Assembly (NCBI GenBank): GCA_022843925.1 | Contig: JALHMS010000010.1 | Location: 70,257-134,256, forward strand | Direction: 5' to 3' | Length of the DNA: 64,000 nucleotides | DNA from: Burkholderiales bacterium | GTDB lineage: Bacteria > Pseudomonadota > Gammaproteobacteria > Burkholderiales > Ga0077523 | Shown: one piece after another, positions 1-22,637 of the stretch | How the letters are laid out: every line of letters begins with the position of its first letter | Numbering within the stretch: position 1 is the stretch's first letter | Notes under the pieces: model-generated | Database searches by the model: none | Told to the model about the DNA's origin: nothing | What the model saw: the letters and a program-made list of their open reading frames with translations, nothing else | Made by a program: the position numbers and the translations under genes

Positions 1-1483
1 GCGCGCCTCGCGGATCATCAGCAACGTGTATCCCCGATCGCGGATCGTCTACACGGCCACGACCCAGCGCGAGTTCCGGCTGACGCTCGACCAGATCTTC
101 GGCGGTTCCAGCGGCGGCGAGGATTTCGTGGCCGACGTGGGCGAACTGCTCGACAAGCTCGATGACGAATCGGACGGCGAAATCGCCGGGGCGGGCGGGA
201 TCGACGACGCCTCCCTCGCCCAGGACAACGAACTGGTCCGGCTGGTGAACAAGATCATCGTCGACGCCTACCACCAGGGCGCGTCCGACATCCACATCGA
301 ACCGTTCCCCGGCAAGGGCAAGACCGAGGTCCGCTTCCGCAAGGACGGCACGCTGACCCATTACATCTCGGTGCCCTCGTCGTACCGCAATGCGCTGGCG
401 GCGCGATTGAAGATCATGTGCGATCTCGACATCTCGGAGCGCCGCAAGCCGCAGGACGGCAAGATCAAGTTCAAGAAGTTCGGCCCGCTCGACATCGAAC
501 TGCGGGTCGCGACCGTGCCGTCGCAGGGCGGTGTCGAAGACATAGTGATGCGGATTCTCGCCGCCGGCGAACCGATCCCGCTCGACAAGCTCGGCCTGTC
601 CGCGCGGAATCTGAAGAACGTGAAGGAGACGATCGCCAAGCCGTACGGTCTCTTCTTCGTGTGCGGCCCGACCGGCTCCGGCAAGACGACCACCCTGCAC
701 TCGATCCTCGGCTACATCAACACGCCGGAGACGAAGATCTGGACCGCCGAGGACCCCGTCGAGATCACGCAGAAGGGTCTGCGGCAGGTGCAGATGAACC
801 CCAAGGCCGGCGTGACCTTCGCCACGGCGATGCGCGCATTCCTCCGGGCCGATCCGGACGTCATCATGGTGGGCGAGATGCGCGACAAGGAGACGACCGC
901 GATCGGCATCGAGGCGTCGCTCACCGGTCACCTCGTATTCGCGACGCTCCACACGAACAGCGCCCCCGAGTCGATCATCCGGCTGCTCGACATGGGGATG
1001 GATCCGTTCAATTTCTCGGATGCCCTGCTCGGCGTGCTGGCCCAGCGGCTCGCGAAGCGGCTGTGCGCCAAGTGCAAGAAGTCCCACGTGGCCACCCAGG
1101 ACGAGATGAAGGCGTTGCTGGAGGAGTACAGCATCGAGCTGAAGAACACCGACTACTGGAAGCGCGATCCCAAGGCATCGTTCGAAGGCCTGTACCGGGA
1201 GTGGGTCCAGAACTTCGCCAACGAGAAGGGACAGTTCACCCTGTATTCGCCGGTGGGTTGCGACACGTGCAGCGGCACCGGCTACAAGGGACGGGTGGGC
1301 CTCCACGAACTGCTCATCGGCACCGAGACGATCAAGAAGCACATCCAGGAGCACGCCCGCGTCGCCGACATCGTCGCCACGGCGCTCGCCGAGAACATGC
1401 GCACCCTGAAGCAGGACGGCATAGAGAAGGTCCTGCAGGGGATCACCGACATGAAGCAGGTGCGTGCGGTCTGCATCAAGTAG
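1..1483 (+). CDS. GspE/PilB-family secretion/pilus-assembly ATPase, 5' end cut by window edge
   Basis: The frame is open from nt 2, and the track ORF 26..1483 starts at an internal GTG. Motifs: Walker A GPTGSGKTTTLHS, MVGEMRDKET and ATLHTNSAP boxes, and the C-terminal tetracysteine cluster CAKCKK...CDTCSGTGYKGRVGLHELL typical of GspE/PilB ATPases. Confidence 0.9.
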   Translation, partial: RASRIISNVYPRSRIVYTATTQREFRLTLDQIFGGSSGGEDFVADVGELLDKLDDESDGEIAGAGGIDDASLAQDNELVRLVNKIIVDAYHQGASDIHIEPFPGKGKTEVRFRKDGTLTHYISVPSSYRNALAARLKIMCDLDISERRKPQDGKIKFKKFGPLDIELRVATVPSQGGVEDIVMRILAAGEPIPLDKLGLSARNLKNVKETIAKPYGLFFVCGPTGSGKTTTLHSILGYINTPETKIWTAEDPVEITQKGLRQVQMNPKAGVTFATAMRAFLRADPDVIMVGEMRDKETTAIGIEASLTGHLVFATLHTNSAPESIIRLLDMGMDPFNFSDALLGVLAQRLAKRLCAKCKKSHVATQDEMKALLEEYSIELKNTDYWKRDPKASFEGLYREWVQNFANEKGQFTLYSPVGCDTCSGTGYKGRVGLHELLIGTETIKKHIQEHARVADIVATALAENMRTLKQDGIEKVLQGITDMKQVRAVCIK

Positions 1484-1514
1484 CTTCCACGTGACGACGG
1501 ACGCCCCACCGACG

Positions 1515-3182
1515 ATGAACCCCCTCCCGATGACGCCTGCGGCACCCGACGCCTCGGAGGATCTCCTGCCGCGCCTGGAGGAACTCAACGAGATCGGTAT
1601 CGCCCTCTCGAAGGAGCGCGATCTCGCGCGGCTCCTCGAGACCATCCTGATCGCGGCCAAGAAGATCACGAACGCCGAGGGCGGCACGCTCTATCGCCGT
1701 CATGCCGACGACGAGAACCTCCTCCACTTCGAGATCATCCGGAACGAGGTGCTCGGGATCGCGATGGGCGGCACCACGGGGCGCGAGATCCGTTTCGACC
1801 CGATCCCGCTCACCTTCGACGACGGCAGCGAGAACACGTCGATGGTGGTGGCCTACGCGGTGCTGCACGACCGGACGGTCAACATCGCCGACGCGTACAG
1901 CGAGGAAGGCTTCGACTTCTCCGGCACGAAGCGTTTCGACAGCCGCACCGGCTATCGCTCGAAATCGTTCCTCACCGTGCCGCTGAAGAACCACGAGAAC
2001 GAGATCATCGGTGTTCTGCAGCTCATCAACGCGAAGGATCGCGCGACGGGCGAGATCATCCCGTTCGGCCCGGCCGATCAGCGGCTCGCTGAGTCGCTCG
2101 CGTCCCAGGCGGCGGTCGCCATCACGAACCGGCTGCTCATCCTGCAACTGGAGCACCTCTTCGAGTCTTTCATCAACCTCATCAACGAGGCGATCGACGA
2201 CAAGTCGCCCTACACCGGCGGTCACTGCAAGCGGGTGCCGCAGCTCACGATGCTGCTGGCCGAGGCGGCCCACAGGGCGGAGTCCGGTCCGCTGGCTGCC
2301 TGGCAGATGACCGAGCAGGACCGCTACGAACTGAAGATCGCAGGGCTTCTGCACGACTGCGGCAAGGTGACCACGCCGGTCCACGTGGTCGACAAGGCCA
2401 CGAAACTGCAGACCATCTTCGATCGCATCGAGCTCGTCGAGACGCGGTTCGAAGTCGTGAGACGGGATGCCGAGATCGCCATGCTGCGGGCGAGGCTTGC
2501 CGCGCACGAGGGTGGGCCGGCCATCGACGTGGCGGCGACCGAGAAGACCTACATGGCGCGGCTCGCCAAGATCGAGGAGGACCGCGAATTCGTCCGTCGC
2601 GCCAACATCGGTTCCGAAGCGATGGGGGCGGAAGATCAGGCGCGTGTGAAGGCGATCAGCCTCGAGTACCCGTGGAACGACCCGACGGGCGCCAATGTGC
2701 CGTTCTTCAGCGCCGACGAGGCGGAGAACCTGGCCATCCGCGCGGGCACGCTCACCGCGAAGGAACGTCAGATCATCAACCATCACATCGACGTGACGAT
2801 CAAGATGCTCGAGGCGCTTCCATGGCCGCGGCACCTGCGCAATGTGCCGGAGTACGCGGGCGGTCACCACGAGCGGATGGACGGCAAGGGCTACCCGCGC
2901 GGTCTCAAGCGGGACGACATGTCGGTGCAGGCCCGCATCATGGGCATCGCCGACATCTTCGAGGCACTGACCGCGAAGGACCGGCCCTACAAGAAGGGCA
3001 AGACGCTCACCGAGTCGCTGCACATCCTCGGCAAGTTCAGCCTGAACGGCCACGTGGATCCGGACCTCTTCGACGTGTTCGTCCGGGACCGCGTCTATCT
3101 CGCGTATGCCGAACAGTTTCTCGATCCGGAGCAGATCGACGAAGTGGACGTCAGCAGCATTCCGGGGTATGCCGGAGACTGA
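1515..3182 (+). CDS. GAF-like sensor + HD-GYP domain protein (predicted c-di-GMP phosphodiesterase/receptor)
   Basis: Track ORF 1464..3182. I chose the ATG at 1515 (MNPLPMTP) because 1464 lies inside the upstream gene. HD-GYP signature: [11 protein letters not shown] ... [14 protein letters not shown]. The N-terminal half looks GAF-like, which is a weaker call. Confidence 0.85.
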
Positions 3183-3375: not shown

Positions 3376-3391
3376 TGGCACACGCCTTGCC
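3376..3391 (+). promoter_or_regulatory. RpoN (sigma54) -24/-12 promoter for pilA
   Basis: TGGCAC-acgcc-TTGCc matches the consensus TGGCAC-N5-TTGC with correct spacing, about 60 nt upstream of the pilA ATG. Sigma54/PilR control of pilA is established in Pseudomonas and relatives. Confidence 0.7.
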
Positions 3392-3451
3392 TTTTCGGAG
3401 GGTGCACATCGCCCGATTGTGTCCAGTCCAACCGCCTTAGGAGTTAAGTCA

Positions 3452-3910
3452 ATGAAGCGTATTCAACAGGGTTTCACCCTCATCGAGCTGATGATCGTGG
3501 TCGCGATCATCGGCATTCTGGCGGCGGTTGCGCTGCCCGCGTACCAGGACTACACGGTCCGCGCCCGGGTGCAGGAAGCCGTGACGCTGTCCGACCCGGC
3601 CCGCTCGGCAGTGGCCCAGGCCTGCTCCGAAGCCACGCTGGGTGGTGCCACCTCCGCGGGCGGCGTCGTCGACAACACGACGGCCGGTCTGCCGGTACCG
3701 ACGGGGATCACCGGCCAGTACGTGGCTTCCGTGACGATGACCAGCACGGGCACGAGCACGGCCACCGTGACGATCTCCGTCCGCAACATCAACGGTATCG
3801 TGGCCGGTGGCAGCACCGGTGATGTGATCTACACGGCAGCCTGCAACCCTGGTGGCACGAACTGGTCGGTTTCGGGCTCGATCCTGTCCAAGTACTTCCC
3901 GAAGTCCTGA
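3452..3910 (+). CDS. pilA: Type IVa major pilin (prepilin)
   Basis: Only the last 459 nt of track ORF 2672..3910 are pil[35 protein letters not shown] is a class III leader with G-1, F+1 and E+5. Two Cys ([12 protein letters not shown]) fit the C-terminal disulfide loop. An AGGAG RBS lies 8 nt upstream of the ATG. Confidence 0.95.
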
Positions 3911-3931
3911 TCCGGACTTTCAGGTCTGTAC

Positions 3932-3964
3932 AAAAAAGGAGGCGAAAGCCTCCTTTTTCTTTTT
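3932..3964. terminator. Bidirectional rho-independent terminator between convergent pilA and GT41 gene
   Basis: A-run, then stem GGAGGC, loop GAAA, stem GCCTCC, then a T-run (aaaaaaGGAGGCgaaaGCCTCCtttttctttttc). Confidence 0.8.
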
Positions 3965-4084
3965 CGGGTGACGATCCGCGTCTTCCCGCCGACCGGAACG
4001 GAGGCACAAGGGCGGCCATCGGATGCCATCGTCCACCCGCAGACACGTGCGGCGATAAACGTCGCCTGCAGGTGTCACGCAACG

Positions 4085-6829
4085 TCAACGCCCGTCCTGT
4101 CCCCCCGGTCTATCGAGCCAGTCCTGCCACATGCGGCGATAGGCCGCTTCGAGCGCCCGCGTGAATCGTGGCACGTCCGTCAACGGTGACGCCGCCATCG
4201 CCGACCGGAGCGTCTTTCGCATCCTTGCCAGGCGCTCGGGATCCTGCGCGAGCGACACCGCCAGTGCCACGTAGTCGGCGGCATCCTTCGCGATCAGCTC
4301 CCCGTACCCGATCGCCGAAAGGAGACTTGCCGATACCCGCGCGGCATGCCGATCTCCCAGCATGGCGACGACCGGGACCCCCATCCAGAGCGACTCGCAG
4401 GTGGTGGTGGTGCCGTTGTAGGGAAACGTGTCGAGGGCGATATCGACCTGCTCGAGCGTCCGGAGATGCGCCTGGAAGCCGGGAATCGGCCCCAGGAACC
4501 GCACGCGATCCCGCGCGAAGCCATGGGCATCCAGCCGGGCGCGAACGCGATCCTGCAGTTCCTCGTCGCCGAGCGTGGGCGTCTTCATCGTGAGGGTCGC
4601 GCCGGGAACGCGATCCAGGATCTCCTTCCAGCATCGGAGGGCCGAGTCACTCACCTTCTGGTAATTGTTGTAGACGCCGAAGTTGATGTGACCCGTCGCT
4701 GCCGACGGCGGGGCGCAGACCCCTGGCATTTCGGGCGACGGCGCGTACACGATGAACATGTCGGGCATCCGGAACACGCGCTCCAGTTGATGTGCGTCGG
4801 CGTCGGGCGCGGGATCCGCGATCGCATCCGAGATGCGCCAGTCGATGGTCGGGATGCCTGTGCCCGAGGGGTAGCCCAGCCAGGTCACCTGGACCGGCGC
4901 GACCCGGCGGGCGAGGAGGGCGAGGCGGTTGTTTCCGGTATGGCCCGCGAGCTCGACGACGACATCGAGGTCGTCTTCGAGCATCACCCGCTCCGCCTCG
5001 TCGTCGGGGAGGTTCCCGATATCCCTCCAGATGGTCGCCATCTCGCGAAAACGAGCGGTGGCCGGATCGGCCTCCCTGCCGGCGAAATAGAGATACAGCT
5101 CGACCGCCGTGGCGTCGTGGGCTCGCAGCACGGGCTGAACGAAGTGGCCGACCACATGGTTGCGGAAGTCGGGCGACACGTACCCCACGCGCAGCCGGCG
5201 CCCCGGTCGCCGATCGCGGGTGAACGACGTCCGGGATCTACGTTCGGCCAGTTCGGGGCGCTGTCCCGCCAGTACGTGCTCGGCAAGCAGAGCCGCCGGC
5301 GTCGTCGTCCCGACGTAGTTCAGTGCGAACAGCAGATTGCTCCAGGCGGTATCGAACTGCGGTCGGACCTCGATGACCTGACGCAGCGCCGGTACGCTCT
5401 CCTCGAAGCGCCCCTGCGCCTGGAGCGCATTGGCCAGACTGAGCAGCGCATCCGGATGCCGTGGATCCAGTTCGAGGGCATCGCGCGCGGCCGTCTCCGC
5501 CTTGGTGGGCAACTGCAACCGGTACTGCACCGAAGAGAGGTTGATGTGCGGCTCGATCAGCCGGGGTTCGAGTTCGATGGCGCGCTCGAGCTGCCGCCGT
5601 GCCTCCTCGTACTGCCCGATGCCCGAGAGCGCCACGCCGAGATCCGAGTATCCCCGCGCGGAATCCGGATCGAGCACCAGCAGGTCGGACAACCACTTGG
5701 CCGCCGCGCGGAAGCGGTTGCGCCGGATCAGGAGACCCGAAAGCGTGAAGAGGATCCGCGTATCCCCGCCGGCGAGCGCATTGGCCTTCTCCAGCAGGAT
5801 CTCGGCCTCGTCGTAGGACCGCTGGCCGATCAGCACTTCGGCCAGGATGTGATGGGCATCCGCGCTCGCGGGGTCCACGGCGATCGCGCGATTCAGGAGC
5901 GCTTCGGCCTCGTCGAGGCGCTCCAGATGCAGCAGGGTCGTCCCTAGCTCGACCAGGATGGGCGCCGCGTCGGGCGCGATCCGATGCGCGTTTTCGAGGG
6001 CTGCGAGGGCCTGCTCCGGCTGACTCGCCGCGCGGCGGACGATCCCGAGATGCGTCAGCGCGATGGCGGACTCGGTGCGGCCGCCGACGGCACGCTCCAG
6101 CACGACGAGCGCTTCGTCGACGCGCCCCGCCTTGAAGAGCAGCAGGCCCAGCATCGCGCCCGCGCCGGCATGGTCGGCATCGCGCGCCAGGATCAGTCGG
6201 CTGAGGGTCATGACCTCGGCAGGGTCGTTCTGCCGGACGAGGAAGCGGGCGAAATCGAAGACGTCGCGATCCCGGGTTCCGGCGCCGGTCCATGCCGCCA
6301 GAAGAGCAGGGGTCGCACCGTCGGTGTCGCCCTGACGGGCCAGCAGCGCCCCCAGCATCCATTGCAGCGCCGGCTCGGACGGCATGAGGGCCACGGCGCG
6401 CCGGTACACGTCGATCGCGTCCGGCACGCGGCCCATCTCCTGCCGGATCCGCCCGAGCAGGTGCCACCAGTTCGCATCGTCGGACTGTCTCGCGAGGCCG
6501 TCCTCGAAGCCCTCGCAGGCCTCTTCGAGCCGCCCCAGACGCCACAGCGCCTCTCCACGCGAGAAATGGAAGAGGGGCGCTTCCGGATCGATCGCGAGCG
6601 CGCGCTCGAAGCCCTCGAGGGCGGCTGCGAACTCGCCGGACGCCAGATCCAGTCGCGCGCGGAGGAAGCGCGCATCGGCATTCTTCGGGTCGATCTGCAG
6701 CGCCTGGTCGAAGGCCACGCGCGCGCTGGCCTGATCGCCCTTCTCGAACGCCTCGTAGCCGACCTTGACGTAGGCACGCGCCTCGCTTGAAGGGTCCGGC
6801 TTGGGTTTGCCCTTGAGCCACTTGAACAT
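4085..6829 (-). CDS. TPR-repeat + GT41 (O-GlcNAc transferase/SPINDLY-like) glycosyltransferase, paralogue 1
   Basis: 914 aa with a long N-terminal TPR array. C-terminal catalytic motifs: VGYVSPDFRNHVVGHF, VQVTWLGYPSGTG and DTFPYNGTTTTCESLWMGVPVV...ARVSASLLSAIG, parallel to the OGT motif FPYNGHTT..LW.G.P. No signal peptide. Confidence 0.85.
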   Translation of the reverse strand: MFKWLKGKPKPDPSSEARAYVKVGYEAFEKGDQASARVAFDQALQIDPKNADARFLRARLDLASGEFAAALEGFERALAIDPEAPLFHFSRGEALWRLGRLEEACEGFEDGLARQSDDANWWHLLGRIRQEMGRVPDAIDVYRRAVALMPSEPALQWMLGALLARQGDTDGATPALLAAWTGAGTRDRDVFDFARFLVRQNDPAEVMTLSRLILARDADHAGAGAMLGLLLFKAGRVDEALVVLERAVGGRTESAIALTHLGIVRRAASQPEQALAALENAHRIAPDAAPILVELGTTLLHLERLDEAEALLNRAIAVDPASADAHHILAEVLIGQRSYDEAEILLEKANALAGGDTRILFTLSGLLIRRNRFRAAAKWLSDLLVLDPDSARGYSDLGVALSGIGQYEEARRQLERAIELEPRLIEPHINLSSVQYRLQLPTKAETAARDALELDPRHPDALLSLANALQAQGRFEESVPALRQVIEVRPQFDTAWSNLLFALNYVGTTTPAALLAEHVLAGQRPELAERRSRTSFTRDRRPGRRLRVGYVSPDFRNHVVGHFVQPVLRAHDATAVELYLYFAGREADPATARFREMATIWRDIGNLPDDEAERVMLEDDLDVVVELAGHTGNNRLALLARRVAPVQVTWLGYPSGTGIPTIDWRISDAIADPAPDADAHQLERVFRMPDMFIVYAPSPEMPGVCAPPSAATGHINFGVYNNYQKVSDSALRCWKEILDRVPGATLTMKTPTLGDEELQDRVRARLDAHGFARDRVRFLGPIPGFQAHLRTLEQVDIALDTFPYNGTTTTCESLWMGVPVVAMLGDRHAARVSASLLSAIGYGELIAKDAADYVALAVSLAQDPERLARMRKTLRSAMAASPLTDVPRFTRALEAAYRRMWQDWLDRPGGQDGR

Positions 6830-6998
6830 GGGTCACCTCGATTTCGCTGGAGCGGCAGGCGCGCCTGCGCTTCGCACTGCGGCAAGCCTTGCCGGCGACC
6901 CGATCGCCGCTGCGGCACTCGCTGCACCACGGCCCCGCGCCGTATGATCCGTTTGCATTCGACATGCGCCACGGTTGGCGCGAATGGAGCATGAAAGC

Positions 6999-7319
6999 AT
7001 GATCTTCGGAATGTTCGATACCAGAAAGGTGGATGACTTCGCGAGGAGCCTCGCCTCGGATCTTTCTCGGCGCTTCCCGCCGGCCAGTGAAGCCCGGACG
7101 GACAAGGGCGTGAAGCAGCAGCTCGAAGTGGTCACCGAGGGCCTGTACGCGCGAGCCGTCCGATTCCACCAGGAGAACCGCCTGGGCCTGTACAAGAAGG
7201 CGAAGCTGGGCAACACGTTCCGTTGGCAGTTGAAGGCCCTGGGATACACCGATCCGTTCATCGAGACGGTGACGAAGGGGCTGGTGGTGCGGCTCGCAAC
7301 GCCGAAGAAGACCCAGTAG
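6999..7319 (+). CDS. Small conserved-looking hypothetical protein
   Basis: Track ORF 6975..7319, with alternative starts TTG 6975, ATG 6984 and ATG 6999. It has a strong GC3 codon bias and a balanced composition (MIFGMFDTRKVDDFARSLASDL...). No recognisable domain. Its 3' end overlaps the convergent GT41 paralogue 2 by 62 nt. Confidence 0.6.
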   Translation: MIFGMFDTRKVDDFARSLASDLSRRFPPASEARTDKGVKQQLEVVTEGLYARAVRFHQENRLGLYKKAKLGNTFRWQLKALGYTDPFIETVTKGLVVRLATPKKTQ

Positions 7320-9303
7320 TCGCGGCGGCCGTCGCCGGCGATGCCAACGCCCGATACGCTGCTTCCAGATCCCGCACGAACCGCGGTTCGTCCATGATCC
7401 CCGATCCTGCGAGGCGCTGTCGCAGGCCGCTCCGCAGGGTCGCCAGCGCTGCCACATCCCCGGCGCGACGCCGGGCGATCTCCACGTAGTCGTCCACCGT
7501 TCTCCCGCACCAGTCGTCCAGCCCGAGATTCGCCAGGATGCTGGCGCCGACGCGCGACACATGCGTGTCTCCCGCCAGCGCGATCACCGGCACCCCCATC
7601 CAGAGTGCATGCAGGGTTGTCGTCGTGCCGTTGTAGGGGAAGCTGTCCAGCGCGATGTCGACCTCCCGGTGCTGCGCGAGGAAGGTCTCGTGCGAACCAC
7701 GCCCACGCAGGATGAAGCGCGCCGGATCGACCCCCCTCCCCTCGAAGTACGCCAGCAGCGCCGTGCGCGCCTCGCCCCCGGGGAGCGCGGTCATCAGGCA
7801 TCGCGCATCGGGTACGGCCACCATCACGTTCGCGATGGTCTCGCGCATCGTCGGCGAGATCTTCGCGAACGTGTTGAAGCAGCCGAACGTGATGCAGCCA
7901 TTGGCGATGGCCGGCAGCGGCCCCGGATCCGGCGCACCGGGCAGCGGCCGGAAGCACATGAAGAAGTGCGGCAGCGGCACGATCTGCTCCGACGCGGTCT
8001 GGCCGGAGAGGTCTGCGGCGATGTGCCGATCGGTGATCCACGCGTCCACGGAGCGCAGACCCGTGGTGTCGGGGTAGCCGAGCCACGTGACCTGCACCGG
8101 CGCCGGCTTGCGGGCGAAGAGCGGCAGGTTGTTGTCGTCGAAATGACCCTTCAGATCCACGAGGACATCGATGCCATCCGCACGGACCAGCTCCGCGAGG
8201 GCGTCCCACGCCATGCCCGGCACGCGCCGCCAGTGGTCCGCCTTTCCCTCCAGACGCAGGCTCACGGCATCCCGCTGCCGCGTGCGGTCGTAGCACCACA
8301 CCTCGACCGTCCGGCGGTCGTGGCGCTCCAGCACCGGCTCGAAGAAGTAGTTGATGACGTGATCGCAGAAGTCGCCCGACACGTAGCCCACGCGCAGCCG
8401 CCGCGATCCCGACGATGGCGTGGGCCCGACGACGGGGGGACGGCGGAAGCGACGGTCGTAGTCGTCGAACGCCTTCGCGCGCGCTTCCCGCGACGGGGAC
8501 CCGGCGTACAGCCCGGCCGAGAACCAGTCGGACCACGCCTGCGGATCCGAAGGCGCGAGCGCCATCCCGCGTTCGTAGTGGACGAGCGCCTCTGCCAGCT
8601 CGCCGCGACTGTCGAGGGCGAACGCCAGCTTGCGATGGGTGAACGCATCGTCGGACCCGCACGCAAGCGCCTCGCGGTACCAGCGGATCGCATCGTCGAG
8701 ACGTCCGCGCGCCTGCATCGTGGCGCCGAGATACGCGCGCGACGCTGCGTCGCCGGGATCGCGTGCGCCGGCCTGCTCCAGTTGCGCGACCGCGTCGTCG
8801 AGCCGGCCCTGGGCGTGCAGAAGCGCGACGGGGTTGCGAGCCGGATCGAACGTCCAGTCGAGCAGGCGATGCATCTGGTAGGTCTCGATCGCATCGTCGT
8901 ACCGACCCAGCGCACCGAGCAGCGGGACGATTCGCTCGGCCGCCGCGGCATACCGCAGATCCGCAGCGAGCGCGGCTCGCATCGCCGAGAGCGCGGCTTC
9001 CGCATCGCCGGTCTCCCGCAGTGCCTCGGCCAGCGTGAACCACGTGGCGGCCCGCGAAGGGTCGAGCGTCGTCGCCGTCCGGAGATGCACCACTGCGCGG
9101 GGGAACGCGCCCTGTCGGCAGGCCAGAACGCCGGCCAGATGCAGCGCTTCGGCGGGTGGCGACGGCTCGGCAAGCAACCCGTCGAGGACGGCCGCCGCCC
9201 CTGCATCGTCGCCGGCGCGTAGCGCGGTTCGCGCGGCTTCCAGGCGTGGTCCTGCCGGGGCAGGGGGTGGCGCGGACCGATGACGTCTCAGCCAGTCGAA
9301 CAT
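7258..9303 (-). CDS. TPR-repeat + GT41 (OGT/SPINDLY-like) glycosyltransferase, paralogue 2
   Basis: Track ORF 7258..9498. I moved the start to ATG 9303 (MFDWLRRH), which matches the N-termini of the neighbouring paralogues (MFKWLKGK, MLDWLKQT). Motifs: VGYVSGDFCDHVINYF, VQVTWLGYPDTTG and DSFPYNGTTTTLHALWMGVPV. Confidence 0.85.
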   Translation of the reverse strand: MFDWLRRHRSAPPPAPAGPRLEAARTALRAGDDAGAAAVLDGLLAEPSPPAEALHLAGVLACRQGAFPRAVVHLRTATTLDPSRAATWFTLAEALRETGDAEAALSAMRAALAADLRYAAAAERIVPLLGALGRYDDAIETYQMHRLLDWTFDPARNPVALLHAQGRLDDAVAQLEQAGARDPGDAASRAYLGATMQARGRLDDAIRWYREALACGSDDAFTHRKLAFALDSRGELAEALVHYERGMALAPSDPQAWSDWFSAGLYAGSPSREARAKAFDDYDRRFRRPPVVGPTPSSGSRRLRVGYVSGDFCDHVINYFFEPVLERHDRRTVEVWCYDRTRQRDAVSLRLEGKADHWRRVPGMAWDALAELVRADGIDVLVDLKGHFDDNNLPLFARKPAPVQVTWLGYPDTTGLRSVDAWITDRHIAADLSGQTASEQIVPLPHFFMCFRPLPGAPDPGPLPAIANGCITFGCFNTFAKISPTMRETIANVMVAVPDARCLMTALPGGEARTALLAYFEGRGVDPARFILRGRGSHETFLAQHREVDIALDSFPYNGTTTTLHALWMGVPVIALAGDTHVSRVGASILANLGLDDWCGRTVDDYVEIARRRAGDVAALATLRSGLRQRLAGSGIMDEPRFVRDLEAAYRALASPATAAATTGSSSALRAAPPAPSSPSR

Positions 9304-11102
9304 GACCCCTCCGACGCCCGTTGCATGACCATCCCGGCATAGGCGTTCTCCAGCGCGCGGGCGAGCCGGAGAACGTCCGTGAGCGCGCTCGCACGGAGTT
9401 CGCCGCGCAGGTTCACGCGATGATCCGCGAGAGCCTCGCGGTCCGACGCGAGACCGGCGGCAATGCGGACGTAGTCGTCCCGGTCCGTCGCGACCCATTC
9501 CGGATGGCCGGCCCGCGCCAGCAGGCTCACACCGACGCGCGACACGTGCGCGTCCCCGGCGAGCGTCACCACCGGCACCCCCATCCAGAGCGCCTCGCAG
9601 GTCGTCGTCGTGCCGTGATACGGATGGCTGTCCAGGGCGACGTCGATATCCGCATATCGACGCAGGTGGCGCTCGAAATCCCCTTCCCAGCCCGAGACGT
9701 CGAGCCGCGCCGGGTCACCGCCCGTCGCGGCGAAACGCGCGCGGAATCGCGCCTCGGCACGGACATCCTCGAGTCCCTGCGCCTTCACCAGCAGTCGCGA
9801 ACCCGGCGTCGCCGCCAGCACGCCCGCCCACAGCGCGAGGCAGGTGTCGCTCAGCTTCGCGGGGTTGCTGAAGCATCCGAAGGTGACGTGCCCGCGGGTG
9901 CGAAAGGGCGGCGCCGCCACGTTCGGCGCCTCGGACCTCGGCTGGTAGGCAAGGAAGCCGGACGGCAGGCGCACGAGTGCTTCCGTGTGCAGGGATTCCG
10001 ACGTGCCGGGCGGATCTGCCCAGGCGTCCGTCAGACGGAAGTCCATGGCCGGCACGCCGGTCGTGTTGGGATAGCCGAGCCAAGTCGCCTGCACCGGTGC
10101 GATGCGCTGCGCGAAGAGCGGGAGGCGATGGCCTCCGGTGTGTCCGGAGAGATCGACGGCGATGTCGAGCCGATCCGCGCGGATGACCTGCAGCGCGGTC
10201 GCGTCGTCCATGCCGCCGATGTCGCGCCAGACGTGGGCGTGCGAACGGGTCCGCGCAGTCTGCGCGTCGTGCCGATTCCCCGCGAAATAGCAGAAGACCT
10301 CCACGACGCTGCGATCGTGGGCGGCGAGCACGGGTTCGAGGAAGAAGCTGACGACGTGGAAGCCGAAGTCGGCGGAGACATAGCCGACGCGCAACGGGCG
10401 CCCGTCCTCGCGCGGCGCGATCGGCAGGTCCACGGAACACCGCCCCAGCAGCCCCGCGAGCCGGCGGTGCTCGCCCGCAACGAAGGCGGGCTCGACGCCA
10501 TCGGCATAGTTCAACGTGAGCAGGTACGCCTCGATCAGCCCCGGCTCGGGCCGGGCGGGCATGTCGCGCAGAACCTCGAGGGCCTCGTCGATGCGCCCCT
10601 GGCCGCGCAGCGCGAGGGCAAGGTTGCTGCGCAGGCCGGCGTCGCCGGGCGCCTGGGCGAGCGCCGCGCGGAAATGCGCCTCCGCATCGATGAAGCGCCC
10701 CGCCGCGCAGACGAGGGTCCCGAGATTATTGCGGGCCGCAAGCGACGCGGGGTCGGCCGCCAGCGCGGCGGCGAGGCTCTTCTCGGCCGCGACGGCATCA
10801 CCGCGCGCCTCGTGCACGCTCGCCAGGTTCACCCACGCGGCAGCGAGCCCGGGCATGGCTTCGACGGCGTGGCGCAGCGCATCCTCGGCTTCGGCGAAGG
10901 CGCCGGTCTGCAGGTACGTGAGCGCGAGGTTGTTCCACGCCTGCGCGTAGTCGGGGGCCAGTGCAACGGCCTCGCGATAGGCACGCCGTGCAGCGTCGAC
11001 ATCACCCGCCTCCGCGAGGCGGTCGGCCTCCGACTTTCGCGCGAGGGCGCCCGGCGACGGCGCGTCGTGGCGCGAGAACGTCTGCTTCAACCAGTCGAGC
11101 AT
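9288..11102 (-). CDS. TPR-repeat + GT41 (OGT/SPINDLY-like) glycosyltransferase, paralogue 3
   Basis: 604 aa. TPR N-terminus, then VGYVSADFGFHVVSFF, VQATWLGYPNTTG and DSHPYHGTTTTCEALWMGVPVV. Its stop overlaps the start of paralogue 2 by 16 nt. Confidence 0.85.
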   Translation of the reverse strand: MLDWLKQTFSRHDAPSPGALARKSEADRLAEAGDVDAARRAYREAVALAPDYAQAWNNLALTYLQTGAFAEAEDALRHAVEAMPGLAAAWVNLASVHEARGDAVAAEKSLAAALAADPASLAARNNLGTLVCAAGRFIDAEAHFRAALAQAPGDAGLRSNLALALRGQGRIDEALEVLRDMPARPEPGLIEAYLLTLNYADGVEPAFVAGEHRRLAGLLGRCSVDLPIAPREDGRPLRVGYVSADFGFHVVSFFLEPVLAAHDRSVVEVFCYFAGNRHDAQTARTRSHAHVWRDIGGMDDATALQVIRADRLDIAVDLSGHTGGHRLPLFAQRIAPVQATWLGYPNTTGVPAMDFRLTDAWADPPGTSESLHTEALVRLPSGFLAYQPRSEAPNVAAPPFRTRGHVTFGCFSNPAKLSDTCLALWAGVLAATPGSRLLVKAQGLEDVRAEARFRARFAATGGDPARLDVSGWEGDFERHLRRYADIDVALDSHPYHGTTTTCEALWMGVPVVTLAGDAHVSRVGVSLLARAGHPEWVATDRDDYVRIAAGLASDREALADHRVNLRGELRASALTDVLRLARALENAYAGMVMQRASEGSCSTG

Positions 11103-11185
11103 CGGGGGCGAGGAAGGATCGGGGCCGGGGCAGTATAGCGAGGCGCAACGTCGACGCTCACGCCTTCGTCATGCGGGCACCACCC

Positions 11186-12028
11186 TCAGCGCCGGTAGAC
11201 CGATGCCTTCAGCGGCAACCCGTTGCTCATGTAGGAGTGGAAGTACTCGAGGTCGTTGAAGGTCTCGCTGCCCATGGGCAACGGCTCGGCGCGCACCTGC
11301 TCCATGCAGCGGGTGTAGCGCGCGTGAAGCGTGTAGAGCGCATCGCCCCCGCGGAAGACCGGAAAATGCGGCGCCTGCCCGAGCGCGGGGGAGATGACTT
11401 CCATCCGCATCACGCGGCCCGCGTTCTGCACATGGCAGTTGGCGCACGAGAAGTTCATCTGCCCGATGCGGCGCTCGAAGAACGCGCGGCCGGCTTCGTA
11501 GCGCGCGACGGCCTCGGGCGACTCGACGCGGATCGCCATGCGCATGCCGTCGGACAACGTGCGCGCGTACGCCGTGAGCACCCCCATCGTGTCGCGATCG
11601 TCGTAGCGGTACGCGGCCTCGCCGTTGTCGGTGCGGCAGCGGTTCAGGAGCATCTCGAAGGTGACGACGCGGCGTTGTTCCGCGTCGTATCGGGGATAGG
11701 TGCCCGCCAGCATGCGGCCACCGTCGGGCAGGCAATCGGCGTACGTGCGGCCGTTGGGGAACGGCTTCTCCCAGAGGGCGCGTCCGCGATCGATGTCGGG
11801 TTCGAAGGGCGGGAACGCCATGATGTCTTCGTAGTGCCGCCGGCCCGCCGCGTTGAGCATGAAGCTGCCGAGCACGTAGTCGTCGAGCGGCACGGCCGGG
11901 AATCGCGCCTGGAAGAACTGCACGTAGTCGCGGCGATCGTCTTCCGGTGCCGCGGCACTGCCGCCGAACAGCCCGGACAGACCAGCACCGAGTACCAGCG
12001 CCGCCAGCCGCGCCTGTCCGCGCCTCAC
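11186..12028 (-). CDS. soxA: SoxA, c-type cytochrome subunit of the SoxAX thiosulfate-oxidation complex (single heme motif)
   Basis: Track ORF 11186..12076. The GTG at 12028 gives a signal peptide (RRGQARLAALVLGAGLSG) and a GTGA overlap with the soxZ stop. Motifs: one CANCH heme motif, the conserved YTRCMEQVR cysteine-ligand region and the C-terminus LPLKASVYRR. Confidence 0.85.
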   Translation of the reverse strand: MRRGQARLAALVLGAGLSGLFGGSAAAPEDDRRDYVQFFQARFPAVPLDDYVLGSFMLNAAGRRHYEDIMAFPPFEPDIDRGRALWEKPFPNGRTYADCLPDGGRMLAGTYPRYDAEQRRVVTFEMLLNRCRTDNGEAAYRYDDRDTMGVLTAYARTLSDGMRMAIRVESPEAVARYEAGRAFFERRIGQMNFSCANCHVQNAGRVMRMEVISPALGQAPHFPVFRGGDALYTLHARYTRCMEQVRAEPLPMGSETFNDLEYFHSYMSNGLPLKASVYRR

Positions 12029-12339
12029 TTGATCGGGACCTCGAGGCTCATGGTCTCGCCCCGGTTGTCCTCCCACGTCACACCGATACGGTCACCGGCC
12101 TTCGCCCCCCGCACGCGGAACTCGAGGAACGGATTCTTCGAGACCGACCGGCTCCACTGCGCATCGAGCACCGTGCGGCCGTTGTGCGTGGCGACCACGT
12201 GATGGATGAAATGCATCGGCACCATGGCCTCGCCGAGCGGATCCTTCCGCAACCCGGTTTCCATGGGATGCGGCATCAGCACCTTCACGGTGGCGACCTC
12301 CCCATCGAGGGCGATGCGCATCTTGATCGGATCAGGCAT
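12025..12339 (-). CDS. soxZ: SoxZ, sulfur-carrier complex subunit
   Basis: Start at ATG 12339 (MPDPIKMRIALDGEVATVKVLMPHPMETG...), about 104 aa, the typical SoxZ size and sequence. It lies directly after soxY. Confidence 0.85.
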   Translation of the reverse strand: MPDPIKMRIALDGEVATVKVLMPHPMETGLRKDPLGEAMVPMHFIHHVVATHNGRTVLDAQWSRSVSKNPFLEFRVRGAKAGDRIGVTWEDNRGETMSLEVPIK

Positions 12340-13798: not shown

Positions 13799-15220
13799 GT
13801 GATCCGAGCCTCCCTCCTCTGCCTTCTTGCGGCGCTGCCCCTCCAGGCATTGCCCGCAGACACCCTCCCCGACCTCGGCGATGTCTCGCAGGCGACGCTC
13901 TCGCCTGCCCAGGAGCGCGGGATCGGTTTCAGCATCATGCGGCAGATCCGCCAGTCGCCGACCTTTCTCGACGACCCCGAGGTGTCGGACTACCTCAACC
14001 AGTTGGGCTACCGGCTGGTCGCGGTGAGCCCGGACACGCGCCAGGACTTCCTCTTCTTCCCGCTGCAGGACAACTCGGTGAACGCCTTCGCGCTGCCGGG
14101 AGGCTATGTGGGCGTCCATTCGGGGCTCCTGCTGACGGCGCAGAGCGAGTCCGAACTGGCGGCGGTCATGGCGCACGAAGTGGCCCACGTGACCCAGCGC
14201 CACATCGCCCGCATGGTGGCGGCCCAGGAGAAGCAGGGGATGATCTCCCTCGCCGCCGTCGCACTCGCCATCCTGGCCGCCCGCTCCAACCCCCAGGCCG
14301 CCGCCGGTGCGATCGCGGCGAGCCAGGCCCAGGCGCTGTCGAACCAACTCGCCTTCAGCCGCGACAACGAACGCGACGCCGACCGCGTCGGTGTGCAGAT
14401 CCTCGAACGCGCGGGCTTCGACACGCATTCGATGCCCGTCTTTCTCGACCGCCTGCAGCGCTCGACGCGCTCGCTCGAGACCGGGGCGCCCACCTACATG
14501 CGCACCCACCCGATCACCTACGAGCGCATCGCCGACGTCCAGGGCCGGATCTACGACCTCCCGTACCGGCAGGTGCCGGACAGCCTGGAGTTCCACCTGG
14601 TCCGCGCCAAGCTCCGCGCGATGCAGAGGGAACCCCGCGAAGCCGTCGCTTACTTCGACGAATTGGTGTCCGAACGCAAGTTCGCCAACGAGACGGCAGC
14701 CCGCTACGGCCTGATCACCGCCCTGTTGCGCGCCCGGGAGTTCGCCCGCGCGGCCCGGGAGATCAAGTTACTGCCCCAGGCCGCGGACAGCCACCCGATG
14801 CTCGCGCTGCTCCATGGGCGCATCCTCGCGGGCAGCGGCAAGACGCAGCCGGCCATCGACTGGTACCGCAAGCAACTCATCGCCTTCCCGAACCAGCGGG
14901 CCCTCGTGTACGCCCTTGCCCAGACGCTTCTCGACGCCAAGCGGCCGGCGGACGCGAACGCGGTGATCGATGCCCGCCTCCAGCGCGATCCCGACGACGG
15001 CCGACTCTACGAAATGCAGGCCATCGCGTACTCGGCCCTGGGGCAGAACATGATGAAGCATCGATCGCTCGCCGAGTCCTACGTGGCCCAGGGCAACATC
15101 CGGCTTGCCATGGAACAACTGCAACTGGCCCTGAAGAACAACAACGGGGACTTCTACGAGGTGTCCGGCATCGAGGCGCGCCTCAGCCAGCTCCGGACCC
15201 TCACGGCGAAGCAGGAATGA
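13799..15220 (+). CDS. bepA: M48-family periplasmic metalloprotease with TPR domain (BepA/YfgC-like)
   Basis: GTG start and signal peptide. Motifs: [10 protein letters not shown] zinc motif, [17 protein letters not shown] and a C-terminal TPR region. Confidence 0.85.
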
Positions 15221-16620
15221 CGGCGCCGGGCGCCGACGATCTGCCGAAGCACCCCTCGGCGGCCGCGGAAATCCCGATAGAATCGGCGACTTCCTCCACC
15301 GCCCCCCCGACCTCTACCGCCCCCATGGACCGCATCGGCAAGTACGAACTGGTGCGCGAAATCGGCCGCGGCGCGACAAGCGCCGTGTATCTGGCGAACG
15401 ACCCCTTCGCCGGCCGCCAGGTGGCGGTCAAGCTGGTCAAGCAGGAGGCCCTGGGCGATCGTGAATACGGCCGGCGCTTCCAGAAGCTCTTTCTCACCGA
15501 AGCGTCGCTGGTCGGCAAGCTCAACCACCCGCACATCGCCGCCATCTACGATGCCGTGGCGGACGTAGACGGCAGCTACATCGTGATGGAGTTCATCGAC
15601 GGCCCGACGCTCGACGAGTTCTGCCGGGTCGAGAACCTCATGCCGGTGTCGCGCGTGGTGGAGCTCATCTTCAAGTGCAGCAAGGCCCTCGACTACGCCC
15701 TGAGGATCGGCATCATTCATCGGGACATCAAACCGGCGAACATCCTCGTGGCCCCCGACGGCGAGATCAAGATCTCCGACTTCGGCGCGGCCCTGTCGCT
15801 CGCGTCCGAGACGACGCAGGTCACGGGGGTCGGGTCGCCGGCCTACATGTCGCCCGAACAGGTGCGCGACCAGCAGCTGAACCACCAGACCGACATCTTC
15901 TCGCTCGGGGTGGTCATGTATCAGCTGCTCACCGGCCGACTGCCCTTCAAGGCGACCAACAACTTCAGCATGGTCTACCAGATCATCAACGTGGACCCGC
16001 CGCCGCCGTCGGTCCACAGGCCCGAGATTCCCCAGGCGGTGGACGTGATCGTGAAGAAGGCGCTGCAGAAGAGCCTCGATCGCCGGTATCAGACCTGGAG
16101 CGAGTTCTCTTCGGCGCTGGCCGCGGTGTTCGGCGACCTCAAGTCGATCGCCCAACCCGTCCCCGAGGCCGAGAAGTTCTCGACGCTCCGGGACCTCGAG
16201 TTCTTCCACGGCTTCGGCGATGCGGACCTCTGGCAGGTCGTGCGCATCTCGTCGTGGTCGCGCCATCCGACGGGTACTGCTGTGATCCAGGAAGGTGCCG
16301 ACGGCCGATCGTTCTTCATCCTCGCCTCCGGCGAGGTGCGGGTGACCAAGAACGAACGCCTGCTCACGGTGCTGCAGGCAGGTCAGTGCTTCGGGGAGAT
16401 GAGCTACCTCGGCACGCGCGACTTCCACCGTTCGGCGACCGTCACCGCACTGACCGACATCACCCTCATCGAGGTCTCGGACGAGGCGTTGTCGCAGGCC
16501 ACGGAGTCCTGCCGCAACCGGTTCAACGCCGCCTTCCTGGAACTGCTGGTCTCGCGGCTGGAAGCCGCCAACATCCGCGTGTCCCAGTTGCTGGTGGACC
16601 GTACCGTCGGCGCGCGATAG
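15217..16620 (+). CDS. Ser/Thr protein kinase fused to a C-terminal cyclic-nucleotide-binding domain
   Basis: Kinase motifs: IGRGATSAVY, VAVK, HRDIKPANILV, DFG and SPAYMSPEQ. The C-terminal CAP_ED-like domain has FGEMSYL...RSATVTA. ATG 15217 forms an ATGA overlap with the bepA stop. An alternative start is ATG 15325 (MDRIGKYEL). Confidence 0.85.
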   Translation: MTAPGADDLPKHPSAAAEIPIESATSSTAPPTSTAPMDRIGKYELVREIGRGATSAVYLANDPFAGRQVAVKLVKQEALGDREYGRRFQKLFLTEASLVGKLNHPHIAAIYDAVADVDGSYIVMEFIDGPTLDEFCRVENLMPVSRVVELIFKCSKALDYALRIGIIHRDIKPANILVAPDGEIKISDFGAALSLASETTQVTGVGSPAYMSPEQVRDQQLNHQTDIFSLGVVMYQLLTGRLPFKATNNFSMVYQIINVDPPPPSVHRPEIPQAVDVIVKKALQKSLDRRYQTWSEFSSALAAVFGDLKSIAQPVPEAEKFSTLRDLEFFHGFGDADLWQVVRISSWSRHPTGTAVIQEGADGRSFFILASGEVRVTKNERLLTVLQAGQCFGEMSYLGTRDFHRSATVTALTDITLIEVSDEALSQATESCRNRFNAAFLELLVSRLEAANIRVSQLLVDRTVGAR

Positions 16621-22292: not shown

Positions 22293-22637
22293 ACCTCACG
22301 ATCCAGTGGCTTCTTGATCCGCTGGCTCCCCACGTTCGTTCGGCTCTTGGCGCTCTCTCAAAGCTGACCCGCACGAGATCACTGCCCGGCTCTGCAGCCT
22401 GGCGGTACGCAAGATCGACCCGCGACCGCGCGACCGCCCCCAGGGCTTCTCCCCGATCTCGCCTACAATCCCGCGTACTTCGCCGCCCCGTCCGCGTGCC
22501 GACGAGATGCCTCTTCGCGAGGGCGCCGCTCTGATCTGACCCCCTCGCCTCCGCAGCACCCATCCGACCAGCAATCAGCGTTGACCCGGGCAGGGGTACG
22601 ACCCGGGAACGTCAGCCGCCACCTTCAGGAGTTCCTG

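Follow-up and report, generated by a model that had tools for sequence, protein, structure and literature searches.

The stretch examined here, a window of 64,000 nucleotides (nt) from a Burkholderiales bacterium (GenBank assembly GCA_022843925.1, contig JALHMS010000010.1, positions 70,257 to 134,256 of the forward strand), carries near its beginning an island in which three genes for glycosyltransferases of family 41 (GT41), each fused to tetratricopeptide repeats (TPRs), converge on a type IV pilin gene, with a small gene lying among them on the opposite strand. The features of the island, in window coordinates, are the following.

3376 to 3390, plus strand: sigma54-type -24/-12 promoter element, TGGCACACGCCTTGC, 62 nt upstream of the pilA start codon.
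3452 to 3910, plus strand: pilA, encoding a type IVa major-pilin-type prepilin of 152 residues (Pfam N_methyl, E 2.6e-10; Pilin, E 1.7e-08).
3933 to 3958, not assigned to a strand: bidirectional intrinsic-terminator hairpin, AAAAAGGAGGC-GAAA-GCCTCCTTTTT, with an 11-pair stem, an A-run upstream and a T-run downstream.
4085 to 6829, minus strand: GT41-1, 914 residues, about 14 TPRs and a GT41 catalytic domain of the GT-B type (Pfam, E 4.5e-52).
6999 to 7319, plus strand: small conserved gene of 106 residues between GT41-1 and GT41-2, called on its conservation and on a third-codon-position GC content (GC3) of 0.83.
7258 to 9303, minus strand: GT41-2, 681 residues, a shorter, degenerate TPR region and a GT41 domain (Pfam, E 1.1e-48).
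9288 to 11102, minus strand: GT41-3, 604 residues, about 5 TPRs and a GT41 domain (Pfam, E 2.8e-46).

An earlier note on this DNA, made from the sequence alone, had described the GT41 genes as three consecutive minus-strand paralogues with products of 914, 681 and 604 residues. Open reading frames (ORFs), Pfam searches and alignment confirmed the strand, the sizes, the paralogy and the TPR + GT41 architecture; the genes are, however, not strictly consecutive, because the plus-strand gene at 6999-7319 lies between GT41-1 and GT41-2. TPR arrays were found by Pfam in all three proteins, which score 177.5, 166.3 and 158.3 bits (GT41-1, GT41-2 and GT41-3, respectively) against PF13844, Glyco_transf_41, the cut-off being 25. 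GT41-2 was counted from MFDWLRR, its reading frame being open as far as 9498. Over the full length, the other two paralogues are 37% and 42% identical to GT41-1, and the catalytic domains are 39-49% identical in pairwise comparison. The motifs quoted in the note (VGYVS.DF, VQ.TWLGYP and PY.GTTTT..LWMGVPV) proved to be invariant columns in the alignment of the three paralogues, and the similar N-termini (MFKWLK in GT41-1, MFDWLR in GT41-2 and MLDWLK in GT41-3) and the 16-nt overlap of GT41-2 and GT41-3 (9288-9303) are present as described. Neither a signal peptide, as the note had stated, nor a transmembrane segment was detected in the GT41 proteins (maximum 19-residue Kyte-Doolittle hydropathy below 1.5). 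In GT41-3, four successive TPRs (AWNNL, AWVNL, ARNNL and LRSNL) have Asn at the position of the 'Asn ladder' typical of the O-GlcNAc transferase OGT; the Asn ladder is the means by which OGT and the Arabidopsis protein O-fucosyltransferase SPINDLY (SPY), also a GT41 enzyme, grip an extended peptide (PMC10027727).

Catalytic residues were mapped using HMMER alignments and a MAFFT alignment of SPY with 37 GT41 domains from islands of this kind, which are described below; the roles of the residues, established by mutagenesis in SPY, were taken from PMC9715652 and PMC10027727. K665, H495 and T747-T748 of SPY, the last two being phosphate-binding, correspond to K842, H498 and T921-T922 of human OGT (hOGT), and K665 is essential (PMC9715652, PMC10027727). 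Hidden Markov model searches and an active-site comparison, which the note had proposed as a check, found the GT41 domain and the catalytic residues intact, the equivalents of SPY H495, K665, Y744, T747 and T748 being invariant in the three window genes and in all 37 island domains. The window GT41 proteins are predicted to be cytoplasmic enzymes with intact active sites. It is conceivable that the GT41 domains are instead pseudoenzymes, i.e. non-catalytic TPR scaffolds kept for binding: the bacterial homologues TtOGT and XcOGT, assayed in vitro with bacterial substrates, have shown little transferase activity or none (PMC9715652), and the fucose-contacting S496 of SPY is replaced by Val in all three window proteins and, with a single exception, by Val or Ala throughout the 37 island domains. 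This appears extremely unlikely, considering that the invariant residues just listed are all the mappable SPY-essential ones, that two of the three orthogroups retain K689 and E752 as well, and that the distinct pocket residues persist across lineages whose identity is 41-60%, a sign that the donor site is under selection.

Kumar et al. (PMC10027727) defined a donor signature K689/A731/Y744 for guanosine diphosphate (GDP)-fucose in SPY and L866/R904/C917 for uridine diphosphate N-acetylglucosamine (UDP-GlcNAc) in OGT; in SPY-like proteins the Lys and the Tyr are kept, and the middle residue is variable but not Arg (Supplementary Table 2 of the same paper). At positions 689/731/744, GT41-1 has K/T/Y together with E752, a canonical SPY-like pattern identical to that of several SPY-like proteins listed in that paper. 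Mixed patterns are found in GT41-3 (K/R/Y with E752) and in GT41-2 (T/Q/Y with F728 and H752). The SPY-clan signature (K689, non-Arg 731, Y744 and E752) is therefore complete in GT41-1, while GT41-3 departs from it by R731 and GT41-2 by the absence of K689 and E752. Each of these pockets (K/T/Y with E752, K/R/Y with E752, and T/x/Y with F728 and H752) is conserved in the orthologues of that gene across the loci described below, the GT41-2 pocket being kept in L001, L009, L010, L019-L022, L027 and L029 (L-numbers denote loci from other genomes and metagenomes). The three genes therefore represent old, non-redundant orthogroups with different donor pockets. A recent tandem duplication of the GT41 genes was considered and dropped, the catalytic identity being as low as stated above and each paralogue having its own orthologues elsewhere.

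The OGT signature L866/R904/C917 is present in none of the three proteins, which have no Cys at the sugar-size gate and no Leu at 866. Nothing in them matches the metazoan OGT intervening domain, and the alignment to hOGT splits into 552-729 and 845-1023, whereas the alignment to SPY is contiguous. The best sequence match in the PDB (phmmer) is Arabidopsis SPY, with E-values of 1.7e-114, 4.9e-91 and 1.1e-104 for GT41-1, GT41-2 and GT41-3, followed by TtOGT from Thermobaculum and then by human OGT; XcOGT is much weaker (1e-38 to 1e-45). With the catalytic domain of GT41-2 alone as the query, TtOGT (1.9e-79) comes ahead of SPY (1.1e-74). An AlphaFold2 model of GT41-1, with a mean predicted local distance difference test score (pLDDT) of 93.6, has 29 helices between residues 13 and 503, corresponding to about 14 TPRs, and then a Rossmann-type GT-B domain. 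Its top Foldseek matches are SPY, OGT and TtOGT, with SPY structures first (E 1e-47), and the target-normalised TM-scores are 0.87 for the SPY-GDP-fucose complex, 0.93 for TtOGT (root-mean-square deviation 2.5 Å), about 0.79 for XcOGT and 0.43-0.64 for human OGT. Against NF049992, the NCBIfam equivalog model of the cytoplasmic N-glycosyltransferases (NGTs), the three proteins score 30.2, 22.7 and 40.0 bits, the cut-off being 1000, and they possess TPRs. The window genes fall outside the OGT/SEC clan and the NGTs, because the features that define those groups were looked for and are absent.

As judged from residues and predicted fold, then, the window GT41 proteins are SPINDLY/TtOGT-like and not OGT-like, and GT41-1 fits the SPY-like clan. 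The view expressed in the note, that these are OGT/XcOGT-like enzymes using UDP-GlcNAc, could not be maintained: SPY and TtOGT are the best matches, and UDP-GlcNAc as the common donor was rejected, since the donor-pocket signatures argue against it. With no OGT signature and three differing pockets, UDP-GlcNAc for all three enzymes is unsupported. GT41-1, which has the SPINDLY guanosine-binding signature, probably uses a GDP-sugar; as to GDP-fucose, there is a predicted likeness of the pocket only, with Val in place of S496. The labels 'O-GlcNAc transferase' and 'tetratricopeptide repeat protein' given to such genes find no support in their donor-pocket residues.

PilA has the leader MKRIQQG|FTLIELM, its identical protein cluster is named 'type IV pilus assembly protein PilA' by one source, and 23% of the residues of the mature protein, predicted to have 145 residues, are Ser or Thr. 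The note had pointed to the C-terminal Ser of the pilin; this residue is not conserved, orthologues ending in S, T, G, V or A, and glycosylation of a C-terminal Ser in the manner of TfpO was set aside. The note had also described pilA as sigma54-driven, and the promoter element is present as described: the sequence TGGCAC-N5-TTGC has its sole exact match in the 64 kb window at 3376-3390, and the exact motif is also found upstream of the pilin gene in six related loci (L001, L009, L010, L011, L012 and L017). No such motif was found upstream of the window GT41 genes, either by a scan allowing up to one mismatch or by reading the intergenic region 6830-6998. The convergence of the GT41 genes on pilA with a single bidirectional hairpin was likewise confirmed; the hairpin at 3933-3958, with its A-run and T-run, is common to pilA and GT41-1 and lies in the 174-nt gap between the pilA stop (3910) and the GT41-1 stop (4085). 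In L012, a further exact TGGCAC-N5-TTGC is located at 5997-6011 (plus strand), between the small gene and the next GT41 gene (start 6236), which hints at co-regulation of transferases and pilin by RpoN in that locus.

The small gene most likely starts at 6999 (MIFGMFDTRK), with alternative upstream starts at 6984 and 6975, and encodes a basic protein (isoelectric point 10.2). It overlaps the 3' tail of GT41-2 convergently by 62 nt (7258-7319); the overlap is 41 nt in L010 and absent in L012. The part of GT41-2 that is overlapped is a low-complexity tail past the conserved ...EAAYRAL ending. In L001, a close relative, the small protein is 100% identical, where adjoining genes are 94-98% identical. 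Homologues in a large protein collection number 812, all unnamed and of about 100 residues. A search of 1.84 billion representative proteins gave 677 clusters at 50% identity (E <= 1e-3), all stand-alone: no fusion to another domain that might hint at a function was found there. The conserved core reads RRFPPxSExRTD ... KAKLGNxF[RK]W, and three Thr residues (T8, T34 and T92) are near-invariant. The AlphaFold2 model, from a 30-sequence alignment, has five helices (pLDDT 89.3, predicted TM-score 0.80). The protein matches no family in Pfam, NCBIfam or PHROGs, and no significant match in the PDB was obtained by Foldseek (best E 0.21, globin-like noise) or by sequence profile.

A contig scan returned one close relative, L001 (LNEE01000031, a metagenome-assembled Betaproteobacteria genome), which is fully syntenic with the window; the other loci that it returned contain distant GT41 homologues and were used as controls. 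The gene order shared by the window and L001 is PilB-type ATPase, GAF-HD-GYP protein, pilA, GT41-1, small gene, GT41-2, GT41-3, soxAZYX, moaC, BepA-like peptidase and a cyclic nucleotide (cNMP)-binding kinase. The layout soxA, GT41 set, small gene, GT41 set and pilin is kept around orthologues of GT41-1 at 75%, 48% and 41% identity. GT41-1 orthologues adjoin the pilin gene in L009, L010 and L021, and other transferase genes intervene in L012 and L029, while the GT41 gene convergent with the small gene belongs to the GT41-2 orthogroup in all the sox-flanked islands. Between the conserved flanks, the number and type of transferases vary among relatives: L010 has three GT41 genes; L017 has four, with one TPR-GT9-like protein and one methyltransferase; L012 has five, with one TPR-GT9-like protein, one TPR protein, three methyltransferases and two pilin genes. 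The two pilins of L012, where the transferase set is the largest, are in tandem and nearly identical. Of all genes in the neighbourhood, it is in general the GT41 genes that diverge fastest, and pilA, too, outpaces most genes around it (L001, L020 and L010): with respect to L001, pilA and the GT41 genes are 88-93% identical and the flanks 94-98%; with respect to L010, the values are 48-56% for the GT41 genes, 66% for pilA and 67-86% for the flanks.

The N-terminal motif M-[FL]-x-W-[LF]-[KR] is common to the island GT41 proteins, the TPR-GT9-like proteins and one TPR protein with no recognised catalytic domain (window, L010, L012 and L017). A degenerate form occurs in one island methyltransferase, and a variant, M.FG.FDT[RK], opens the small protein. 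The shared motif may be a docking or membrane-association peptide.

Using the small gene as a probe, a metagenome scan yielded 80 loci, in which the gene is flanked by TPR-transferase genes wherever the relevant side has enough sequence. Several layouts were found. In L013/L014, the order is FHA/PP2C, pilin, two TPR-GT-B proteins (GT9-like) and the small gene, then NTP-transferase, dehydratase, DegT and NeuB; in L015/L016 (Casimicrobiaceae), pilin, two TPR-GT9-like genes, the small gene, a third TPR-GT9-like gene, FdtA, DegT, acetyltransferase and dehydratase; in L099 (Methylophilaceae), the small gene, two GT41 genes and pilin. L100 and L101 show other layouts with pilins and TPR proteins, and the flanks of the islands in L072 and L089 are quite unlike the sox type. 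The small gene lies directly beside pilin genes in L101, and also in L063 and L075, which are short contigs showing no transferase genes. Nucleotide-sugar genes present in some islands are those for NTP-transferase, 4,6-dehydratase, DegT, FdtA, acetyltransferase and NeuB. The N-terminus of the pilin is nearly identical across the small-gene loci.

A pilin of the GFTLIELM type lies within 10 kilobases (kb) in 11 of the 13 loci whose sequence extends about 10 kb to either side of the small gene. By comparison, neither the pilin signal nor the small gene was found in any of six control loci, which surround more remote GT41 homologues (Azospirillum, Phycisphaerales, Verrucomicrobia and others), so that pilin adjacency is a property of this type of island and not of bacterial GT41 genes generally. 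The small gene is a marker of islands of TPR-fused transferases (GT41, GT9-like and methyltransferases), most of which adjoin a pilin gene, and the linkage of pilin, TPR-transferase and small gene, recurring in at least eight different genomic contexts, exceeds inherited synteny. Among the genes called in the islands examined there was none for a flagellin or an adhesin, and no oligosaccharyltransferase, whether of the Wzy_C or of the GT-C type, was found by Pfam among the called island genes or the scanned window ORFs. The note had put forward the pilin as a candidate substrate of a multi-enzyme module on adjacency alone. The module is confirmed and the candidate is a sensible one, but the basis given for it was understated, since the link with TPR-transferases and the small protein recurs in unrelated contexts; the comparative evidence is stronger than the note held.

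On balance, we lean towards reading the locus as an island for cytoplasmic, oligosaccharyltransferase-independent glycosylation of the pilin. The mechanism, which we infer throughout, would be as follows. The TPR solenoids of the three soluble GT41 enzymes would grip an acceptor protein along an extended stretch, the prepilin of the neighbouring gene being the most likely acceptor, and each enzyme would transfer one monosaccharide from a nucleotide sugar to Ser or Thr, before or during insertion of the prepilin into the membrane. Because they belong to separate orthogroups with different donor-binding residues, the three enzymes would most likely add different sugars, or differ in site or step, rather than being redundant. 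The note had supposed that TPR length sets the substrate range; the differing donor-binding residues fit the use of different sugars at least as well. The 106-residue helical protein would be an accessory factor (an adaptor, a specificity factor or a chaperone), with GlfM, discussed below, as the nearest functional analogy.

A variant of the pilin glycosylation reading concerns the linkage. PilA contains a sequon, N-[TA]-[ST]-AGLP, at residues 73-80 approximately (66-73 of the mature protein), in the alpha-beta loop region, and the sequon is present at mature position 62-68 in all pilins of the GT41-rich, sox-flanked islands (L001, L009, L010, L012, L017, L020, L021 and L029). The GT9-like islands have pilins of another subfamily (C-terminus ...VPSAFR) with no conserved sequon, most having none at all. 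An NGT-like N-glycosylation of the Asn of this sequon might be imagined, as HMW1C and NGT are cytoplasmic GT41 enzymes acting on N-x-S/T (PMC3012730, PMC9715652). We consider it very improbable, because the window proteins score far under the cut-off of the NGT model, as reported above. In addition, NGTs are devoid of TPRs, while the window proteins have the TPR and SPY-type architecture of O-transferases, and the sequon stands within a conserved motif that is perhaps purely structural.

The genes flanking the island are the following.

26 to 1483, plus strand: PilB/MshE-type secretion ATPase, 3' part, cut by the window edge (Pfam T2SSE, E 9e-118).
1464 to 3182, plus strand: GAF + HD-GYP-type (HD_5) protein, directly upstream of pilA (HD_5, E 4.9e-41; GAF, E 8.9e-15).
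11186 to 12076, minus strand: soxA, last gene of soxXYZA, 83 nt upstream of GT41-3 (Pfam SoxA-TsdA, E 8.9e-23).

On its pilin side the island has the ATPase as its conserved flank, and the full-length ATPase orthologues (L010, L012 and L017) have 796-799 residues with GAF, MshEN (T2SSE_N) and T2SSE domains. The GAF + HD-GYP-type protein, a probable cyclic-di-GMP phosphodiesterase, is encoded at the same position in L009, L010, L012, L017 and L029. Past soxA, Pfam identified SoxZ, SoxY, a cytochrome c and MoaC. The order soxA, then GT41, is conserved in L010, L012, L017, L021-L023, L026, L027 and L029, while no sox genes adjoin the islands of L013, L015 and L099-L103. The neighbourhood survey suggested in the note, which had named both pilA and sox genes, therefore showed the pilA/GT41 neighbourhood to be conserved in relatives and the sox link to be specific to one lineage; a functional link with sox was set aside.

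A set of signalling genes recurs by the pilin or the island: GAF-PilB-type ATPase, GAF-HD-GYP protein, class II cyclic-nucleotide phosphodiesterase, CHASE2 nucleotide cyclase, FHA and PP2C proteins, CHASE2 kinase and cNMP-binding Ser/Thr kinase (window, 26-3182 and 15217-16620; L009/L010, 13.5-22.7 kb; L099, 5.8-10 kb). The recurrence of this set suggests a pilus controlled by cyclic-nucleotide and phosphorylation signals.

A number of points weigh against cytoplasmic glycosylation of the pilin. Type IV prepilins are inserted into the membrane via their N-terminal helix, probably co-translationally, so that cytoplasmic enzymes would have little access to the C-terminal domain, which is periplasmic in the end. 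The cyanobacterial precedent discussed below leaves the same topology step unexplained, and the effect of the Ogt enzyme there could be indirect. HMW1, which is glycosylated in the cytoplasm, and heptosylated autotransporters leave through Sec, and cytoplasmic glycosylation followed by export is therefore not impossible. The evidence for all members of the island consists of gene context and homology, and the low activity of TtOGT and XcOGT on bacterial substrates in vitro (PMC9715652) also belongs here. Sugar-biosynthesis genes, found in some related islands, are absent beside the window GT41 genes. As to the acceptor, the Ser and Thr content (21-29%) was taken from the island pilins by themselves, and the C-terminal Ser of PilA is not conserved. 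In L102, which is fully covered, the small gene is accompanied by a TPR protein and sugar genes, yet no pilin lies within 10 kb; L027 is also devoid of a pilin in the sequence covered, although its island extends past that flank. Finally, no terminator or sigma70-like promoter was detected in the 83 nt between soxA and GT41-3 (11103-11185), which are on the same strand; the expression of GT41-3 and GT41-2 may therefore not be tied to that of pilA, and the two genes may be read through from soxXYZA.

The last points are those that favour another surface acceptor (an adhesin, a minor pilin, flagellin, an S-layer or a non-protein structure), the pilA site being in this case a hot spot that collects surface-variation genes. 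In addition to L102, both L027 and L103 are long islands with no pilin in the sequence covered; GT41-2 and GT41-3, located just past soxA on the same strand, are perhaps transcribed independently of pilA; and HMW1C, a member of GT41, acts on adhesins (PMC3012730). Nevertheless, the pilin is the only exported acceptor candidate that recurs across contexts (11 of 13 loci, as against none of the six controls), the small gene is directly beside pilin genes in L063, L075 and L101, and L012 pairs its two near-identical tandem pilins with the largest transferase set; moreover, the islands yielded no call of a flagellin or adhesin gene. A different surface acceptor thus appears unlikely.

The topology problem would be avoided altogether if the GT41 enzymes modified soluble proteins, and not the pilin, tuning the activity of the pilus, possibly in cross-talk with Ser/Thr phosphorylation. 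Candidate targets would be the GAF-PilB-type ATPase, the GAF-HD-GYP protein, the FHA, PP2C and Ser/Thr kinase proteins, and the small helical protein with its near-invariant T8, T34 and T92. The enzymes are predicted to be cytoplasmic, among characterised enzymes the closest to them is SPY, which has many nucleocytoplasmic targets (PMC10027727), and genes for FHA, PP2C and kinase proteins, a CHASE2 cyclase, a class II phosphodiesterase and a cNMP-binding kinase recur by the islands in several contexts. We regard such a regulatory role as rather improbable, considering that the islands of relatives carry genes for making unusual sugars typical of surface structures (NeuB-type nonulosonic acid synthase, FdtA/DegT amino-deoxy-sugar enzymes), that the number and type of transferases differ strongly between close relatives, as in surface glycosylation islands, and that the signalling genes are absent from some contexts (L015, L101 and L102). 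Furthermore, the sole experimentally studied pairing of a bacterial TPR-GT41 enzyme with a pilin gene points to the pilin (PMC9306852).

That pairing is found in cyanobacteria. Ogt of Synechococcus elongatus (Synpcc7942_0051) has TPRs and a GT41 domain and no secretion signals, and is necessary for PilA to be glycosylated and for normal piliation; a mutant in the catalytic Lys fails to complement, ogt adjoins a pilin gene in 38% of 201 cyanobacterial genomes, and its authors infer that PilA is glycosylated in the cytoplasm (PMC9306852). Like the window enzymes, S. elongatus Ogt and Nostoc punctiforme OgtA are soluble TPR + GT41 proteins encoded beside pilin genes. The comparison is one by description: for cyanobacteria a single Ogt enzyme is described, with UDP-GlcNAc as its donor in vitro, whereas here three to five paralogues per island, with non-OGT pockets, are found in Betaproteobacteria, together with the small helical protein and, in relatives, with TPR-GT9-like enzymes and methyltransferases.

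Among the GT41 proteins, SPY shares with the window enzymes the TPRs, the GT-B domain and the lack of the metazoan intervening domain, but it is a eukaryotic nucleocytoplasmic regulator with hundreds of substrates and has S496 where they have Val. TtOGT (5DJS) and XcOGT (2JLB) are likewise bacterial TPR + GT41 proteins with Tyr at the donor-size gate, although their TPRs are short; neither has a known physiological substrate or donor (PMC9715652), and no pilin context was reported for them in the literature searched. HMW1C and NGT, GT41 enzymes that glycosylate proteins in the cytoplasm as is proposed here, have no TPRs, form N-linkages and use UDP-hexose.

Outside GT41, FlmG of Caulobacter binds flagellin by its N-terminal TPR domain and transfers pseudaminic acid in the cytoplasm by its C-terminal GT-B domain, with no oligosaccharyltransferase (PMC7591256). 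The island enzymes follow the same modular TPR + GT-B logic, and the GT9-like islands with NeuB (L013) resemble, by description, a pilin-linked counterpart; FlmG, however, is not a GT41 enzyme, and its acceptor is a flagellin leaving through the flagellar type III channel, not a membrane-inserted pilin. GlfM is a conserved, cis-encoded small protein, predicted to be a helical bundle, which Maf-2 needs to bind and glycosylate flagellin (bioRxiv 10.1101/2023.12.03.569772). The 106-residue protein is similar to it by description, being cis-encoded, small and predicted to be helical, but the partner of GlfM is a TPR-less Maf of the GT-A type, in which GlfM replaces the TPR domain, whereas the island enzymes already have TPRs. 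TfpO/PilO, PglL and TfpW also have a glycosylated type IV pilin as their product, with modifying genes beside pilA, as proposed here; they are membrane oligosaccharyltransferases that use lipid-linked glycans in the periplasm, and it is genes of this kind that were called neither in the islands nor among the scanned window ORFs.

In function, the nearest counterparts of the locus are the cyanobacterial Ogt-PilA pair and FlmG-type systems, from which it is set apart by its phylum, by multiple enzymes with distinct pockets, by mixed catalytic classes sharing M[FL]xW[LF][KR] and by a dedicated small-protein family. No description of GT41-pilin islands outside cyanobacteria was found in the literature searched. 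The addition of sugars to pili in the cytoplasm has so far been reported only in cyanobacteria, and the present locus suggests an extension of that route. It is possible, although we put this forward only tentatively, that pilin glycosylation with no oligosaccharyltransferase is widespread in Betaproteobacteria, several cytoplasmic TPR-fused transferases (SPY-clan GT41 enzymes whose nucleotide-sugar pockets differ, GT9-like enzymes and methyltransferases) acting on the prepilin before export and being organised by the helical family of about 100 residues, in the role of adaptor or specificity factor.

Bacterial SPINDLY/OGT-like GT41 proteins are very common, and almost none has a known substrate or donor. 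An island that pairs GT41 enzymes with one obvious acceptor makes the question of the substrate directly testable. Were the pilin shown to be modified, cytoplasmic GT41-dependent pilin glycosylation would reach from one cyanobacterial genetic observation to many environmental Betaproteobacteria, and bacterial SPINDLY-like enzymes would have their first physiological substrate and set of donors; the 677 clusters of the small protein, currently unannotated, would represent a new accessory protein family; and the insertion and assembly of a pilin modified in the cytoplasm would call for an explanation.

Some minor features of the window may be added. The GC content of the island region is 0.67-0.72, higher than on the pilA side (0.63). 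Elsewhere in the window, a 546-residue WG-repeat protein is encoded at 22581-24221 (plus strand) and a 539-residue protein with two ricin-B lectin domains at 41118-42737 (plus strand), for neither of which a connection with the island was seen.

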